A DNA stretch of 64,000 nucleotides, taken from positions 2,025 through 66,024 of the forward strand of contig JACPKW010000005.1 in NCBI GenBank assembly GCA_016186825.1, written 5' to 3'. This stretch comes from Candidatus Giovannonibacteria bacterium (lineage in GTDB: Bacteria > Patescibacteriota > Minisyncoccia > JACPKW01 > UBA11713). The translations under genes and the position numbers were made by a program. The notes beneath the pieces were generated by a model. The model was given only the letters and a program-made list of their open reading frames with translations, made no database searches and was not told where the DNA came from. The first letter of the stretch is position 1. Every line of letters starts with the position of its first letter. Of this stretch, positions 5,895-12,848 are shown one piece after another.

Positions 5895-6200
5895 TGAATT
5901 TGTAGGCAAGGGGGTGAAGCGGGAGAGGAACTCCCGAAATTCCGCAAGATTACGAGAGCGTGCGTTGGGCTACAAACTCTCTTTTGCAAAATTCAAGAAA
6001 CAACATCCCCTTGCCAGTCGAGGTCAGATTAGCTCTGTCAAAAGTTTGAGCGACTTTGTGACAGAAAGCGAAAAAGAGAGACTGTCTCCTTTTTCCCGAC
6101 CCCGAAAACGAACAAAACGTTGAACAGCCGGCCGATAGGCAATCCATCGTATTGTGTGCAGGCAAGCTTAGCGAAGGATATGGGCCAGACTGCTTACGCG

Positions 6201-6272
6201 GCAGACTAAGAGGAGTCGAACCTCTTCTTAGGGGTATGAACCCTGTGCCACGCCACGTGGTTTAGTCTGCCT
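6201..6272 (-). tRNA. tRNA-like gene downstream of 5S, possible CAU anticodon (Met/Ile2); irregular and could be a pseudogene
   Basis: Minus strand has a 7-bp acceptor GGCAGAC/GTCTGCC, a 4-bp D-stem (CCAC/GTGG), an anticodon loop UUCAUAC and T-arm AGAGG-TTCGACT-CCTCT. The register of position 8 and the anticodon stem is imperfect. Confidence 0.4.
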
Positions 6273-6323
6273 TAAAACTCAAGATCAAATTCTCCGAACT
6301 GACGATAATTAAAATTTAAATGC

Positions 6324-6439
6324 TCTGTATCGGCGGCTGCCTACTTTCCCCTTACGAGTATCATCGGCAGTACAGCGTTTTACGACTCTGTTCGGAATGG
6401 GAAGAGGTAGTTCCACTGCCTCAAGCCACCGAAACAGAA
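6324..6439 (-). rRNA. rrf: 5S rRNA
   Basis: Minus strand reads TTCGGTGGC...CCCATTCCGAACAGAGTCGTAAAACGCTGTACTGCCGATGATACTCGTAAGGGGAAAGTAGGCAGCCGCCGA. This matches the 5S core (CCCAUNCCGAAC, GCCGAUGGUAC, AGUAGG) and terminal helix I. Confidence 0.75.
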
Positions 6440-6686
6440 AATCCAAATAAAATAATTTTCGCCAGTTCGGAGAATTTATATCTCCGAAAAAAAATAAAAG
6501 AACGACAATATTTCGATCCGATTTTCCTCCGCTCCGCCAGTTAGCGGATTGCGGAACGAATCACTCAGATCGGAGCGAGCTCGACTTATTAGTACTTCTC
6601 GGCTGAACGCCTTACGGCGCTTACACCTGAAGCCTATCAACGTGGTAATCTTCCACGAGTCTTAACGATTCCTAATCTTGGGGCAT

Positions 6687-6717
<31 letters not shown>

Positions 6718-6797
6718 ACTTAGCGACATAGCTACCCAGCGATGCTCTTGGCAGAACAGCTGGTAGACCAGAGGTCACCTCCTCCCGGTCCTCTCGT

Positions 6798-7584
6798 CAT
6801 GTTTAAACCCCTATTTCTAGGAGCATAGACTATATCTTCATCCCGCTGCATGCATGCAGAGGGAGTCGGCATCTTACCTATAGAAACCTGTCTTTTTATT
6901 TAAAAGACCTTCCAGTTTATATAAGTCTGTCGCGCATGGCGACAAGTCGTTACGGGGTCAAGCCTAAAACTTTTGATAATTCTTCGGATGTTTTCTTCGC
7001 TCGCGACTGATAATTTTCAGTCTGGATCCGAAGTAAGATATCCCGCAATTTATATTTTTGATCATTCTTTAATAAATCAAAATTTTTTCCTTGCAAGATG
7101 CGAGCTGCTTTTAAAATCTCAATTGTCTGAATTCTTTTAAACTTGATGAAAGGCAGCAATGCTTTCAGAACACGCTCGGAACCTCTATATCCATTTATGC
7201 GCAACTCTGTCATTCCATCATTGCGATTGGATAAATACCCTATTCCCAATCTTTTCTGAACCCAGAAAAGCGGTTTCGCGTGCCTCGTATCTTGATAAAA
7301 ACAAATGGTGAACATAAAGCGCCACCCTCTTTTACTATCATTACGATGTTTAATCTGAAGCATAATACTACCATCACCATCAAGAAATCCAGCAATGTAA
7401 GCAAGCTCTTCAGTTTTAAGCCGACTTCCCACGGTATTGTCTTAAAAATTTTCTGGTCCTCAAGTATATCGTACCACATCTAGGACCTTTAGAATGTGGA
7501 TATGCAACCAGAAAATTTATGAAGATTCCACCGTTATAAGCCGAATTTTCAATCCCGATTACTCGGGAAAGTAGCAATTTTTTA
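6798..7584 (-). mobile_element. group I-type intron in 23S rRNA (sarcin-ricin loop region) carrying a LAGLIDADG homing endonuclease gene
   Basis: The exon sequence ...GGGGGGTTCTCCCTAGT is interrupted, then resumes at ACGAGAGGACCGGGAGG. The insert ends in G and follows a U, as group I introns do. It contains ORF 6950-7432. Confidence 0.65.
6950..7432 (-). CDS. LAGLIDADG homing endonuclease (single-motif, I-CreI-like)
   Basis: Motif LAYIAGFLDGDGSI near the N-terminus. 160 aa. Sits inside the 23S insertion in the sense orientation. Confidence 0.8.
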   Translation of the reverse strand: MGSRLKTEELAYIAGFLDGDGSIMLQIKHRNDSKRGWRFMFTICFYQDTRHAKPLFWVQKRLGIGYLSNRNDGMTELRINGYRGSERVLKALLPFIKFKRIQTIEILKAARILQGKNFDLLKNDQKYKLRDILLRIQTENYQSRAKKTSEELSKVLGLTP

Positions 7585-7707
7585 CTAGGGAGAACCCCCC
7601 TCAAGAATCAACGCCTGCAGTAGATAGGAGACCAACCTGTCTCACGACGGTCTGAACCCAGCTCACGTACCTCTTTAATTGGCGAACAGCCAAACCCTTG
7701 GGAGCTC

Positions 7708-8449
7708 ATTTGTCGTTTTCCCGCGTTACTGCGGGTATCAGACTATGCCATCACCATATTTCAATTGTCGCCAATTGAAACTTAGGTGCGAACCGTATTA
7801 TAGATTTTTTAATCTATCTCGCGATGCTCCAAAAAGCATCGCTCAGTCGTTAGAGGAGATATGTTCTTAGATCATTGCCGCAAAATTTTTCCGTCGATTT
7901 TTGGATCGGACGTTAAATTTCGACAATGTATCTGCCAATCGTGCTACGCGCCTCAGATCTCGAAATTCCCTGATGGGAGTTTCTATAATCTTCTGCGCAA
8001 AATCTATTTGCTGTTGTTTCATTCTGGAATAAGGACGAACATAAGAAAGAACTCGCAAGATTTCTTTTTGATCTCTTGTAATCCAATCACATGTTGTCCG
8101 ATTCGTTCGAATTTTTCCACAACCGAGAATCTCGGTCATGCACAAAAGATCTTTTCTGTGCTTTTGCGTTACTTTCAATTCAATACGAACTCGAAAACGA
8201 AACTTTTTCTCATTATGAGGTTCGATGATCGCCATAATGGCGCCATCGCCGTCAATGAGACCAGCAATATATGCACAATCGACTTCAGAACATCTCTTTC
8301 CTACGGCGTTAACCTTCATGAGTATATTATACCTGGGACCTGCAAACTTTGCATATCCCAAGCGTATATTTATGAATAGGCCTTCACCGTTTTGGGCTCG
8401 TTTAATTACTCTGACGTTTCCATCAGAGAGAGAAGTTATGTTTTCTCCA
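7708..8449 (-). mobile_element. second group I-type intron in 23S rRNA (about E. coli position 2500) with a LAGLIDADG homing endonuclease gene
   Basis: The exon CGATGTCGGCTCATCTCATCCTGGGG is interrupted and resumes near ...GAGCTCCCAAGGGTTTGGCTGTTCGCC. The insert contains ORF 7867-8361. Confidence 0.65.
7867..8361 (-). CDS. LAGLIDADG homing endonuclease
   Basis: Motif CAYIAGLIDGDGAIM. 164 aa. Sense orientation inside the 23S intron. Confidence 0.8.
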   Translation of the reverse strand: MGYAKFAGPRYNILMKVNAVGKRCSEVDCAYIAGLIDGDGAIMAIIEPHNEKKFRFRVRIELKVTQKHRKDLLCMTEILGCGKIRTNRTTCDWITRDQKEILRVLSYVRPYSRMKQQQIDFAQKIIETPIREFRDLRRVARLADTLSKFNVRSKNRRKNFAAMI

Positions 8450-10020
8450 CCCCCAGGATGAGATGAGCCGACATCGAGGTGCCGAACTCCGCCGTCGCTG
8501 TGGACGCTCGGGCGGAACTAGCCTGTTATCCCCGGAGTAGCTTTTATCCGTTAATCTTTGGCGCCATCTACTGGCCACCGTCGGTTCACTAGATTCTGCT
8601 TTCGCACCTGCTCGACCTGTCCGTCTCGCAGTTAAGCCGGCTTATCCTCTTACAGGTCCAGCGCGATTTCCATCCGCGCTAAGCCGACCTTAATAAACTC
8701 CTCCGTTACTTTTTAGGAGGATTGCGCCCCACACAAACTGCCCACCAGACACTGTTCCCATCCAGTTTCCCCGCGCTTTTTTCAATTTTCTAAAAAAAGC
8801 GCGGGGTTCTGGATAGGTTAGGACATAAGTCGCCGAAGATGGGTATTTCACTGTTGGCTCCGTCCCGCCCAAAAGCGGGACATCAAAGCCTCCCCACTAT
8901 GCTACGCATCGAAAACTTAAACCCAATATCAAGTTGCAGTAAAGCTTCCGGGGTCTTTTCGTCTAACTGCAGGTAGCCGGCATCTTCACCGGCATCGCAT
9001 TTTCACCGGGCTGCTCCCCGAGACAGTCCCCCAGTCGTTACGCCTTTCGTGCGCGTCGGAACTTACCCGACAAGGAATTGCGCTACCTTAGGACCATTAT
9101 AGTTATGGCCGACATTGACGAGGGCTTCGGACGCTCAGCTGCTCCGCTTACGCTACACAACTTCGCGAATTTACAATTTACAATTTCTAATTTCCAAACA
9201 ATTTTTGAAAATTGAAAATTAATAATTGAAAATTCGGTTGCGAAGCAAAAGCGAAGCAACCGGCTTCGTTAACCTTCTCGCATTGGTCAGGCGTCACCCC
9301 CTATACATCCTCTTACGAGTTCGCAGGGAGCTGTGTTTTTGATAAACAGTCGCCAGGGGTACTTTCGTTGCAGCCGACGCTCCGCATTAGAATTTCCAAT
9401 TTCTAATTCTTCAATTTTCATTGAGTTTCCAATGAATTAATTTCCAAACGTTTGGAAATTGAAAATTGTTACTTGAAAATTCCGATGCGAAGCATCGGCA
9501 GGTCTTATCCCTAAGTTACGACCGCTTTTTTGCCGAGTTCCTTGGGGAGCACTCACTCGTTCGCCTTGGGCTACTCGCCCCACCCACCTGTGTCGGTTTA
9601 CGGTACGGTTTCCTTCAATTAACCTAGAAGTTTTTCTTGGAAGTACGTTTGCGAAGATTTCTCAATCCGAAGAAAAAGATTTTTAAATCGCCTGGAGATG
9701 CCTTGCGGCGCCGGGCGGATTTGCCTGCCCGTCTCCTCGCGACTCAAACACGAATCCAATAACGTGCCTTCGCTACGGCACTCCGTCACTCCATCGAATG
9801 AAGGAAGTCACGGAATATTAACCGTGTGTCCATCACCTGCGGCTTTCGCCATCGGCTTAGGACCGACTAACCCTTGGCTGATAATCATTGCCAAGGAAAC
9901 CTTGGGTTTACGGCGCAGCGGTATTTCACCGCTGTTGTGGTTACTTGTGCCAACATTCTCACTTCTCTGGCGTCCATCCCGGCTCACGCCGTGGACTTCA
10001 CTCGCCAAAGAACGCTCTCC

Positions 10021-10621
10021 TACCAATTAGTGCTTGAATTTTGGAGGGGAATCTCACGACTCCCCTTACATCCTTTCGTTATTTTTTCTTTTTATTGTCT
10101 TTTACGCTGGATTGCGTAGTGAATGAACAGCGCAAGCTTATCAGCACATTCGTATATAACTCTATCGATTTCCCATTCATCCTTGGACGACAATTTTTTA
10201 ATGCCCCGGTTTTTCAACTCTTCGCGAACATCCATGGTCAGCTTGGTATGAATTCCAAGCCGCATTCCATCCAGATTTGGTTTTTCCAACACCATGACCG
10301 TTCTCCTTTCGTTATTTTTTCTTTCCGTTTCTCTTCTCTTGATGCAAGACCAACGTCGCAGTTCGCAAGAATTCACGAGTTAAGCATGGTCTATTCCACC
10401 CATCATCCATCCATGCCCATGTGATTATCTCTGTATGTGCGGAGTGAACGAACCATCTGCGCTTGTACTTTAGCGCGATGCCTTTCAGCATACATCGATC
10501 TTCTTTTGAAAGCCGTCATCATTCGAATATTCCGAGCGATGCGTAATCACGAGAACTTTCGATTCCATTTTCACCTCCAATGAACTAAAAATTTTTTTTC
10601 CAAAATTCAAGCACTAATTCC
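10021..10621 (-). other. intervening sequence (IVS) in 23S helix 45, closed by a perfect 20-bp inverted repeat
   Basis: aattagtgcttgaattttgg (10021-10040) pairs with ccaaaattcaagcactaatt (10602-10621). The 561-nt insert replaces the helix-45 tetraloop between GTACCGAAGGTGAGG and GGTAGGAGAGCGTTC, which is E. coli 23S ~1164-1185, the classic RNase III-processed IVS site. Confidence 0.6.
10092..10376 (-). CDS. IVS-encoded small basic protein (94 aa), candidate 23S-IVS protein
   Basis: Sense-strand ORF entirely inside the helix-45 IVS: MNSCELRRWSCIKRRETERKNNERRTVMVLEK... Function unknown. Confidence 0.35.
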   Translation of the reverse strand: MNSCELRRWSCIKRRETERKNNERRTVMVLEKPNLDGMRLGIHTKLTMDVREELKNRGIKKLSSKDEWEIDRVIYECADKLALFIHYAIQRKRQ

Positions 10622-11496
10622 TCACCTTCGGTACTCTATTTAACCCCGATCATCTGCGGCGCAAGGTCTCTTAGCGAGTGAGCTGTTACGCACTCTTTAA
10701 AGGATGGCTGCTTCTAAGCCAACCTCCTCGATGTTTCAGAAACCTCACCACCTCGCTTGTACTTAATAGAGATTTTGGGACCTTAGATTGAGATTTGGGC
10801 TGTTTCCCTTTCGACCGACGGAGCTTAGCCCCCGTAGTCTGACTACCTGAGTAAACCCGCTGGCATTCGGAGTTTGATTGGTCGTCCGAGATTTCTCCCT
10901 GTGACGACCATCCAGTGCTCTACCTCCAGCGGTTATCTCAAGCGCTAGCCCTAAAGCTATTTCGGAGAGAACCAGCTATTACCAAGTTCGATTAGCTTTT
11001 CACTCCTACCCCCAACTCATCCGATGGCGTTGTACGACCAAACGGTTCGGGCCTCCAGCCGTCTTTCGACGACCTTCGCCCTGGCCAGGGGTAGCTCACC
11101 TGGCTTCGGGTCTATTATTTAATGCATTTAAATCTTAGTTCCGTCCCAATTTTCGAACGGAACTAAAATCTAGTTCGCCCTTTCAGACTCGGTTTCCCTG
11201 CGCGTACGGGCACAAAAGCCCTTACACAAGCAATAAACAATAACTCGTTGGCTCATTCTTCAATAGGCACACCATCACCGCGCACAGCGCGGAAGCACCA
11301 AATAACAAGCACCAAGCTCCAAATAATTTTAAATAACCAATTTTCAATTCTCAAAAAAAATTTGAAACTTGAATTTTGGAATTTGGAATTTATTTGTAAT
11401 TTGGATTTTGGAATTTGGAATTTCCGTGCTATGCACGGCTCTGATTCCTTGTAAGCATATGGTTTCAGGTACTATTTCACCGCCCTCACCGGGCTG

Positions 11497-11534
<38 letters not shown>

Positions 11535-12848
11535 ACTTCGAAAGTATTTAGCCTTAGGAGTGTAGTTCTCCTTGCTTCCTCCGAACCATTCTTTGTTCGA
11601 AGTACTCAAGAAAATCACCGCCACTATATATAAATATACAGGTGCAGGACCCCGCTTTTCAGCAGGGTATCAAGGAGCATAAATCTGTTTTCGCCTACAG
11701 GGCTATTACCTTCTTTGGCGAAGCTTTCCAGCTTTCTTCAGCTAACGAGATTTATTTAATCGGCTCCTTTCCGGCGCTATCCCGCAAACCTCCTGAAATT
11801 CAGAAAGAATGCGGGATGCTCCAGAACGATACAATCTTTCAACCCCAAGCACGTAATCCTTGCGGACTATGTGCTTGGTTTGGGCTTCTCCCTTTTCGCT
11901 CGCCGCTACTAAGGGAATGTTCACATCTCGCTAACGCTCGCTTCAATTATCAATATGCAATTTCTAATTTTCAAAAAATAAATTAATTGAAAATTATTGA
12001 AAATTGCAAAATTGGAAATTAAAAATTTCGAACGTTAGTGAGATATGGTTGTTTTCTTTTCCTCCGGGTACTGAGATGTTTCACTTCCCCGGGTGCGCTC
12101 CGCGCTCTGCACGGAATTTTCAATTTTCAGTTCTCAATTCACAATAAATTTTCAGTGAATTAATTTTCAAACGTTCGAAAATAGGAAATTGATAATTGAA
12201 AATTCCGTGCAAAGCACGGTCTCCGTGGTTTGCACGGAGGGGTTTCCCCATTCGGACATCGTCGGATCAAAGGTTGCTCAACACCTCCCCGACGCTTATC
12301 GCAGTTACGCCACGTCCTTCATCGCCTTTCGAAACCTAGGCATCCACCATACGCCCTTATTTGCCCGCTCCGATCTGAAAGATCCGCCAGAACTTACTTG
12401 GCGAAATCAGATCGAAATATTGTGTCCCGATTCGCAAGTGCTCTTTTTGCGAATCGAGAATCTCCCGATTTTGTTTACAAAATCGGGACTCTTTTTTATT
12501 TAGTTATTTTGCGATTGTTGCCCCATCAGAATGTTGTGTTCCGATGGAGCTACCTGTTTCAATTTTTAAGCTGCATTCACCTACCCGCTTAATTTTGCAC
12601 CTGCAAATTTTGGCGGGTTAGCTACCGGCGTTTGGATTCGCTATTTCACTCATCCAAGCGTCGAGAGCCAATTTCTAACTTTTTATCTAACTTTTTTAAA
12701 CCTCGCCGGGCCTGCCTGCCGGCTGCAGGGACGGGTTCATTAATTAAAAAATCCGCCGTGAAGCGGATTACACATCAAGACTAGGCGTGATTTCATCCGC
12801 TTCTAAAGTTAAGTTTTAATAAAACAAACACCATAAATTGTGCTTTTC

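Follow-up and report, generated by a model that had tools for sequence, protein, structure and literature searches.

A gene-bearing insertion in helix 45 of a Giovannonibacteria 23S rRNA gene shares its ends with inserts in group I intron loops

An insertion closed by a perfect stem at helix 45

Intervening sequences (IVSs) at helix 45 of 23S ribosomal RNA (rRNA) are known from Coxiella burnetii, Leptospira and Salmonella, where they occupy the tip of the helix, pair their ends in a long stem, measure several hundred nt (428–444 nt) and carry a sense open reading frame (ORF) in the loop. The ORF-bearing element of Coxiella is 428 nt long with a 28-bp stem, its excision by RNase III has been demonstrated, and the helix-45 IVS is regarded as a selfish, horizontally spread element (PMC4990558). 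Insertions are also common in the Candidate Phyla Radiation (CPR): 82% of CPR 23S genes carry them, the helix-25 and helix-45 sites (23IS2 and 23IS4) were read as probable RNase III-type IVSs, and non-intron insertions of 500–1,000 bp were left as of 'unknown function' (PMC11270868). The same survey described introns with LAGLIDADG genes at E. coli positions 2593 and 2657, and the ORFs it catalogued were those with Pfam domains only (LAGLIDADG, GIY-YIG, 23S_rRNA_IVP) (PMC11270868). CPR rRNA genes are the most interrupted known, and only their intron and homing-endonuclease insertions are understood. Here we describe an insertion at positions 10025–10619 of a 64,000-nt stretch of DNA (the window), in a 23S rRNA gene read on the minus strand. 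Neighbouring proteins (MBI2610079.1, MBI2610073.1, MBI2610088.1) are NCBI entries of Candidatus Giovannonibacteria bacterium, a CPR member. We consider it rather likely that the insertion is an ORF-bearing helix-45 IVS and belongs to a small family of hairpin-capped cassettes that has so far gone unannotated. An ORF-bearing helix-45 IVS and insertions in CPR 23S genes are already known in kind; new are two orphan protein families other than S23p, the conserved ends of the cassette, and the link between the classical IVS site and ORFs in intron loops.

Alignment by MAFFT with E. coli K-12 rrlH placed an insertion of 573 nt (window 10036–10608) after E. coli position 1174, in the helix-45 loop, and in the Rfam alignment the insert opens the hairpin loop at positions 1205–1218 of the large-subunit (LSU) model. 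Both results agree with an earlier, sequence-only reading in which the insert replaced the helix-45 loop. That reading gave the insert 561 nt and a perfect 20-bp closing stem. The size was close, since 553 nt separate the arms and the total including them is 595 nt, and the inverted repeat is indeed perfect but extends over 21 bp (10025–10045 with 10599–10619). The stem was retained in both the minimum free energy (MFE) and the centroid fold of the region, and the MFE z-score of the insert was −3.55; a perfect repeat of this length and this z-score are beyond chance. With 573 nt the insert belongs to the CPR rRNA insertions, which are defined as at least 100 bp relative to E. coli within a CPR rRNA gene. 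It also has structural features of an RNase III-type IVS: the helix-45 loop is replaced, the ends pair over at least about 20 bp, and a self-splicing core is absent. Its parts, listed in rRNA direction, are as follows.

10599–10619, minus strand: 5' arm of the closing stem, AAUUAGUGCUUGAAUUUUGGA in rRNA sense; the outer part prolongs helix 45 and the inner GUGCUUGAAUUUUGGA is the conserved cassette end
10571–10578, minus strand: Shine-Dalgarno (SD) sequence of gene 1, GGAGGUGA, 2 nt upstream of the gene 1 ATG
10312–10568, minus strand: gene 1, 257 nt, split into ORF B (27 codons) and ORF C (59 codons)
10296–10376, minus strand: N-terminal extension of the 94-codon ORF, 27 codons, with a GTG start without SD; overlaps the 3' end of gene 1
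10304–10324, minus strand: direct repeat copy 1, AAAGAAAAAAUAACGAAAGGA, spanning the last codons and stop of gene 1 and most of the ribosome-binding site of ORF A
10092–10295, minus strand: ORF A core, 67 codons plus stop, ATG at 10295; AAAGGAG at 10303–10309 with a 7-nt spacer
10071–10091, minus strand: direct repeat copy 2, directly after the ORF A stop, identical to copy 1 at 21 of 21 nt
10046–10065, minus strand: 3' hairpin, GGGGAGUC-GUGA-GAUUCCCC, with a GNRA loop, abutting the 3' arm; from the fold
10025–10045, minus strand: 3' arm of the closing stem, UCCAAAAUUCAAGCACUAAUU, of which CCCUCCAAAAUUCA is kept in all three cassettes described below

No internal promoter or terminator was found in the insert. 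An antisense ORF of 127 aa (10041–10424, plus strand) was discarded: it has no family, a low coding score and no place on the record.

A cassette shared with two group I intron loops

Homologues of both genes in the insert reside in introns of other 23S genes. The homologue of ORF A, P0001, is encoded on a 1,282-nt groundwater contig (ENA ERZ1292640, "Hain_H43_02um"; hereafter L001). Here a group I intron (RF00028, 63 bits) that interrupts the 23S gene surrounds the ORF. The ORF takes up the loop at the tip of P8, the stem that lies between the P7/P3' and P7' strands. The homologue of gene 1, P0007, lies on two 99.4%-identical contigs from separate assemblies (L016 and L017), within an intron of about 600 nt after E. 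coli 2593. Its gene occupies the tip of a P6-type stem, on the upstream side of the CCGUAGAGACUAUACG element (J6/7-P7); RF00028 scores 35 bits in L016. The E. coli-2593 site is without an intron in the window 23S.

In all three loci the genes are bracketed by the arms TGAATTTTGGA/TCCAAAATTCA, and the parts follow in one order: a 5' arm ..(Y)UGAAUUUUGGA, an A/U-rich spacer of 10–21 nt, GGAGG(UGA), the gene or genes, a stable hairpin, and the 3' arm CCCUCCAAAAUUCA(R).., which directly abuts the hairpin. The closing stem measures 20–21 bp, and its inner 11–16 bp are fixed in sequence (..UGAAUUUUGGA / UCCAAAAUUCA..). Beyond this core the host supplies the stem, from helix 45, P6 or P8, and this part is wholly different in sequence among the hosts yet still paired: over the closing stems of the three hosts 96.8% of cells are paired, with 6 pairs showing compensatory change and 11 pairs invariant. 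Terminal inverted repeats with an identical 11–16-bp core thus stand at the non-homologous sites helix 45, intron P6 and intron P8. Since the same ends bracket gene homologues at the two intron sites, the module occupies three terminal loops, none homologous to another, of structured RNA genes, and in each its inverted repeat lengthens the host helix.

Pairwise comparison revealed how far the identity reaches. Between the window and L016, 16 of 16 nt of each arm agree apart from one G-C to G-U change; the 5' arm is identical to that of L016 over 16 nt and to that of L001 over 11 nt. The hairpins of the window and L016 agree at 18 of 20 nt, GGGGAGUCG(UG/CA)AGAUUCCCC, the two differences turning the GNRA loop GUGA into GCAA, and blastn aligned the 3' hairpin region at 86% over 59 nt. 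With L001 the window has 11 of 11 nt of the arm core, GGAGGUGA and CCCUCCAAAAUUCA in common, and also CCCTCCAAAATTCA; a 12-bp GC hairpin stands at the position of the 3' hairpin in L001. The counterparts of the window SD sequence GGAGGUGA are GGAGGTGA in L001 and GGAGG in L016. The ends are much better conserved than the cargo, though synonymous sites of the cargo are saturated between the window and L001.

While the ends are constant, the cargo varies: gene 1 alone in L016, ORF A alone in L001 and both in the window. L016 lacks the ORF A unit, and its 3' hairpin directly follows gene 1. The window has in this place a 233-nt addition, which consists of ORF A and a second copy of the 21-nt repeat (AAAGAAAAAAUAACGAAAGGA), so that the two repeats bracket the unit. 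ORF A, which is intact, seems to have been acquired downstream of gene 1 in an event that duplicated 21 nt, and the repeat pair looks like its scar. The flanks of the insert itself are complementary host-stem strands, not direct repeats, and the only duplication is the internal one around ORF A.

In their placement the cassettes resemble homing-endonuclease genes of group I intron loops, which as independent invaders also occupy the tips of peripheral stems (P6, P8) and leave the ribozyme core undisturbed. The cassette of L016 in fact occupies the E. coli-2593 intron, and CPR introns at this position usually carry LAGLIDADG genes (PMC11270868). The cassette differs in that its proteins, of 67 and 85 aa, have neither an endonuclease motif nor a Pfam match, that it has its own inverted repeat and 3' hairpin, and that it is also found in an rRNA helix without an intron. 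Profiles of Pfam, NCBIfam and PHROG detected no homing-endonuclease domain in the insert proteins, whereas the LAGLIDADG ORFs of the window 23S scored normally.

Since cassette relatives reside in group I introns, it was considered whether the insert is itself spliced, that is, removed with religation of the 23S halves by an unrecognised self-splicing or protein-dependent mechanism that would leave the 23S unfragmented. Many CPR rRNA insertions that fit no intron model are nonetheless absent from transcripts, as this explanation would have it. It is improbable, however, on the features of the insert. RF00028 is absent from 10021–10621, and the insert scanned alone gave no group I or group II signal even at E ≤ 10 and no Rfam family below E = 2. 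The ends pair as a plain helix, without P1/P10-type exon pairing, and we know of no bulge-helix-bulge ligation pathway in bacteria.

Further features were observed on the two homologous contigs. At the 5' splice site of its E. coli-2593 intron, L016 has a 22-bp near-perfect hairpin (111–169), in which the end of the exon pairs with an inverted copy of itself; for a P1-type pairing this is unusually long. L001 has a 168-nt insertion in domain V of the 23S (805–960), and a LAGLIDADG ORF (..LIGSILGDG..) starts in a further insert downstream (1148–1282).

Two orphan small-protein genes

The sequence-only reading had pointed to a basic, sense-oriented ORF of 94 codons (10092–10376) as a possible protein gene. 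The frame exists, on the minus strand in rRNA sense and with a GTG start, and our comparisons indicate a real gene, although one reduced to a 67-aa core from the internal ATG at 10295. Looking for a ribosome-binding signal, as that reading proposed, was rewarded by the AAAGGAG ahead of this ATG. A word-index search with the 94-aa ORF gave no match in 5.8 billion clusters. A subsequent exhaustive HMMER search of 1.84 billion representatives, from a collection of ~15 billion proteins, returned P0001 (86 aa; E 2.2e-11, 48% identity) as the only true relative. P0001 aligns solely with residues 30–93 of the 94-aa ORF, and the homology begins at ATG 10295. Two other candidates, P0002 and P0003, were rejected as tandem-repeat proteins whose scores were inflated by 6–7 repeated weak matches. 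The 27-codon extension is probably not translated, because it has no homology, a codon-usage score of −0.245 (ORF A core 0.218; genes of the genome 0.296 ± 0.104), an overlap with gene 1 and no SD before its GTG.

The genes of ORF A and P0001 share 53% DNA identity over 63 aligned codons, with 56, 75 and 30% identity at the three codon positions. The proportion of synonymous differences (pS) was 0.99, which is saturated, and the nonsynonymous divergence (dN) was 0.42. This codon-position pattern is the signature of selection on the protein and indicates that ORF A is a real gene. ORF A is nevertheless present neither in the NCBI annotation nor in the 15-billion-protein collection; gene callers seldom call ORFs within rRNA, so that protein databases under-sample them. 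Its absence, and the fact that short-read assemblies of the strain break in AU-rich rRNA insertions, could be taken to mean that ORF A is non-coding or that the insert is a chimeric join at the inverted repeat. This is hardly credible and already largely refuted by the E value of the homologue and by the low third-position against high second-position identity. Moreover, arm, SD, gene, hairpin and arm recur in the same order and orientation on three independently assembled metagenome contigs.

AlphaFold2 predicted ORF A as a helical hairpin of two long helices, residues 8–29 and 37–66, with a mean predicted local distance difference test (pLDDT) of 90.7, likely to form a four-helix bundle as a dimer. 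The predicted peptide from the insert reads MVLEKPNLDGMR... Its basic character held for the 94-aa ORF (isoelectric point 9.8) and the core (9.2) but is not a conserved property, as the homologue has a value of 4.9. Comparison with protein families of 23S IVSs, another proposal of the sequence-only reading, yielded no match to PF05635/S23p: neither ORF A (94 or 67 aa) nor P0001 matched this or any other Pfam family even at E ≤ 10. NCBIfam, PHROGs and PADLOC likewise gave no match to ORF A, and Foldseek found no significant match to its model in PDB or BFVD.

Three other identities for this part of the insert were tried and dropped. A MazG-like nucleoside-triphosphate pyrophosphatase hairpin (DxxE...ExxD) had no Pfam match and only YpjD in Foldseek (E 9.4, template-modelling score 0.35), and the acidic motifs lie ~8 residues out of register in the model. 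A LAGLIDADG remnant was suggested by a non-significant match to the I-OnuI PDB profile (E 0.16) that consists of two ~6-bit stretches, and the model is all-helical. The upstream half of the insert was also compared with ORF A as a possible degenerate copy, and no similarity was found.

That upstream half holds a second gene (10568–10312), which was absent from the sequence-only reading. Gene 1 starts at ATG 10568, and its 27-codon ORF overlaps the ATG of the 59-codon ORF in another frame. The fused translation matches P0007 (85 aa) at E 1.3e-15 with 53% identity and 100% coverage, and the split is due to a 1-nt deletion at ~10490/10491 (257 nt against 258 nt when intact). The ratio of nonsynonymous to synonymous divergence (dN/dS) between gene 1 and P0007 was 0.25 (dS 1.42), falling to 0.12 over codons 1–46, and the middle section is unconstrained. 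The overall ratio suggests that gene 1 was a selected gene until recently; alternatively, the 1-nt deletion may be an assembly error. These patterns show that both cargo genes have evolved under constraint on the protein.

The AlphaFold2 model of gene 1 has a beta-alpha-beta-beta order (pLDDT 74.5) and gave only weak matches to nucleic-acid-binding folds of the Alba, uS10 and uL22 types (best E 0.014). Gene 1 and P0007 had no Pfam match even at E ≤ 10, and gene 1 matched no family in Pfam, NCBIfam or PADLOC and no PDB sequence. A half '2H' phosphoesterase (invariant HxS) was rejected, since neither profiles nor the fold supported it. The cargo thus differs from that of the known helix-45 IVSs: their S23p proteins are single-chain four-helix bundles of ~115–130 aa, whereas the window carries two unrelated orphan families, a 67-aa two-helix hairpin and the beta-alpha-beta-beta protein. 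Our best guess at their function is that the small proteins are probably nucleic-acid binders which work for the cassette and not for the ribosome.

Two small adjacent genes, co-oriented and 16 nt apart in a selfish-looking element, may bring to mind a toxin-antitoxin-like addiction module, in which the pair would stabilise the insert in a single-copy rRNA gene. We regard this as very improbable. Each gene occurs alone in another cassette, gene 1 is frameshifted while ORF A is intact, and no toxin-antitoxin or defence family was matched in Pfam, NCBIfam or PADLOC.

Proposed release and spread, and the host 23S gene

Without a promoter of its own, the insert would be transcribed inside the pre-23S rRNA. 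RNase III would then cleave its 21-bp duplex, as it does the stems of the helix-45 IVSs in Coxiella, Salmonella and Leptospira, whereby the insert would leave the ribosome and the 23S would fall into two pieces at helix 45. The released small RNA would keep the SD sites and a protective 3' hairpin, and ORF A could be translated from it. In the Coxiella IVS a weak SD is cut off by the cleavage, whereas the strong SDs of the window lie at least 21 nt inside the stem. An SD-like motif precedes the candidate start in 15 of 44 long ORFs of the window, compared with 7 of 44 interior controls, a weak enrichment. Since SD motifs are not general in this genome, the strong SDs of both cassette genes stand out. 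The window further differs from the known IVSs in that its ends are conserved in sequence and recur in group I introns, and in that its excision is a matter of inference.

The insert could instead stay in the mature 23S as a long extension of helix 45, in which case its ORFs would be translated from precursors, if at all. Insertions are tolerated in helix 45, which is exposed to solvent, and the window 23S contains many other hairpin insertions, AU-rich and 40–140 nt long, that resemble expansion segments. We nevertheless find retention unlikely. An insert of 595 nt with SD-led genes and a perfect closing duplex matches the proven RNase III IVSs, and the cassette also sits in introns, which are removed anyway. 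In addition, CPR rRNA insertions are removed from transcripts according to Brown et al., in the form in which that work is cited in PMC11270868.

Several points weigh against an IVS belonging to a cassette family. RNase III needs no fixed sequence of 11–16 nt, so that processing alone leaves the conservation of the ends unexplained; the fixed sequence speaks for a partner that recognises it or for a function in the movement or exchange of the cassette. The cassette was found to encode neither a transposase nor a recombinase, and no nuclease could be recognised; a target-site duplication is not evident either. Neither insert protein significantly matches any family or solved fold, and the GGAGG could be structural instead of an SD, as SD motifs are not general here. 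The family comprises three independent loci, namely the window, L001 and L016 with its near-copy L017. Profile scans of 185,579 species genomes, Joint Genome Institute (JGI) metagenomes, IMG/VR and GenBank phages gave no further locus. Finally, look-ups by the products of overlapping ORFs and in Logan contigs did not recover the helix-45 insert in independent assemblies.

The individual scans gave the following picture. Single-protein scans of genome and metagenome contigs with ORF A, and tblastn against GenBank phages, found no match, and ORF A profile scans of genome, metagenome and viral contigs returned only the ENA contig already found. Six IMG/VR matches to the DNA pattern of arm plus SD were judged to be chance, the 3' arm being absent in all six. 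Logan contigs from this strain match at 100% identity as far as 12065–12332, where they stop in AU-rich insertions of the 23S. At least five sequencing runs (SRR12113390–SRR12113428; Logan contigs L005–L009) hold the strain at 100% identity. All those contigs end in the AU-rich 5' insertions (window 12065–12332), which break short-read assemblies.

If the insert is one copy of a cassette family, the cassette may spread or be exchanged among loops of RNA genes by way of its sequence-specific ends. A bolder proposal, less likely than not though with a substantial chance of being right, is a new class of mobile elements, hairpin-capped cassettes that colonise terminal loops (rRNA helices and group I intron stems) in the CPR. 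The 11–16-bp ends would then be recognised by dedicated machinery, possibly the encoded small proteins themselves, and either gene 1 or ORF A, or the two together, could serve as interchangeable cargo. With the rRNA promoter and RNase III-type release, the host RNA would become an expression vehicle, and the ORF-less AU-rich hairpins of the window 23S would be non-autonomous derivatives.

Palindromic elements similar to miniature inverted-repeat transposable elements (MITEs), among them mitochondrial GC clusters and double-hairpin elements, occur in rRNA genes. The cassettes resemble them in having conserved terminal inverted repeats at non-homologous, hairpin-tolerant sites, and the same 23S has AU-rich hairpins that lack an ORF and share a 14-nt arm motif. 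They differ in carrying expressed-looking protein genes, and neither a transposase nor a target-site duplication was identified. The AU-rich hairpins are near-perfect insertions at several helices of the window 23S (12105–12177, 11922–12046, 11299–11437, 9380–9487 and 9156–9258). They form a sequence family (GGAAUUUUCAAUU... / ...AAUUGAAAAUUCC) with fold z-scores of −3.5 to −11.7, and may be either cassette relatives that lack an ORF or mere expansion segments. Exact copies of the arm 11-mer occur three times in the window, all within 23S insertions. The AU-rich insertions also give spurious matches to plant-miRNA families of Rfam. The copy of the arm motif and the host gene are located as follows.

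11368–11381, minus strand: exact 14-nt arm copy in the helix-25 insertion, UUCCAAAAUUCAAG in rRNA sense (CTTGAATTTTGGAA on the plus strand), within a 139-nt AU-rich hairpin
6568–12356, minus strand: 23S rRNA gene, host of the insert, ~5.8 kb, from Rfam LSU_rRNA_bacteria and from MAFFT and blastn against E. coli rrlH

The CPR rRNA insertion sequences reported by Brown et al. (2015) and Tsurumaki et al. (2024; PMC11270868) come from similarly heavily interrupted 23S genes, and the latter study describes neither of the two protein families nor the shared cassette ends. A non-intron insertion of 'unknown function' can thus be a defined module with ends conserved across hosts and kinds of RNA. The module described here carries real, selected protein genes that annotation pipelines leave uncalled. 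If the cassette is mobile, it would provide a second route for cargo into rRNA genes and introns, independent of LAGLIDADG homing, and a mechanistic link between classical helix-45 IVSs and intron-borne ORFs. The two orphan families raise the question of whether they bind the conserved duplex. Such inserts also break short-read assemblies and rRNA-based surveys of CPR organisms.

The host 23S gene gave Rfam matches on the minus strand at 8998–12356, 8531–8952 and 6568–8540, followed by a 5S gene at 6328–6433, and MAFFT revealed at least 16 insertions relative to E. coli. Two group-I-like introns interrupt its 3' part on the minus strand, at 6798–7582 after E. coli 2657 and at 7707–8444 after ~2532, with weak Rfam scores of 29 and 22 bits. 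Each contains one single-domain LAGLIDADG ORF (6950–7432 and 7867–8361; Pfam E 4e-09 and 2e-11). As no 16S rRNA gene was found within 64 kb of the 23S–5S pair, that is, in the whole window, the rRNA genes are unlinked.

The 5S gene is directly followed by a tRNA-Met (6200–6269). The flanks of the 23S gene are complementary (6505–6580 with 12363–12423; 24 nt at 83% and 20 nt at 95%), as are those of the 5S gene (6287–6311 with 6453–6477; 25 nt at 92%). These long flanking stems are of the classical kind at which precursors are processed, and fit maturation of the RNase III type. Outside the CPR, one 23S copy of E. coli Nissle 1917 (NZ_CP007799.1; L003 781–4050) has an annotated length of 3,270 nt where 2,904 nt would be expected, pointing to an insertion.

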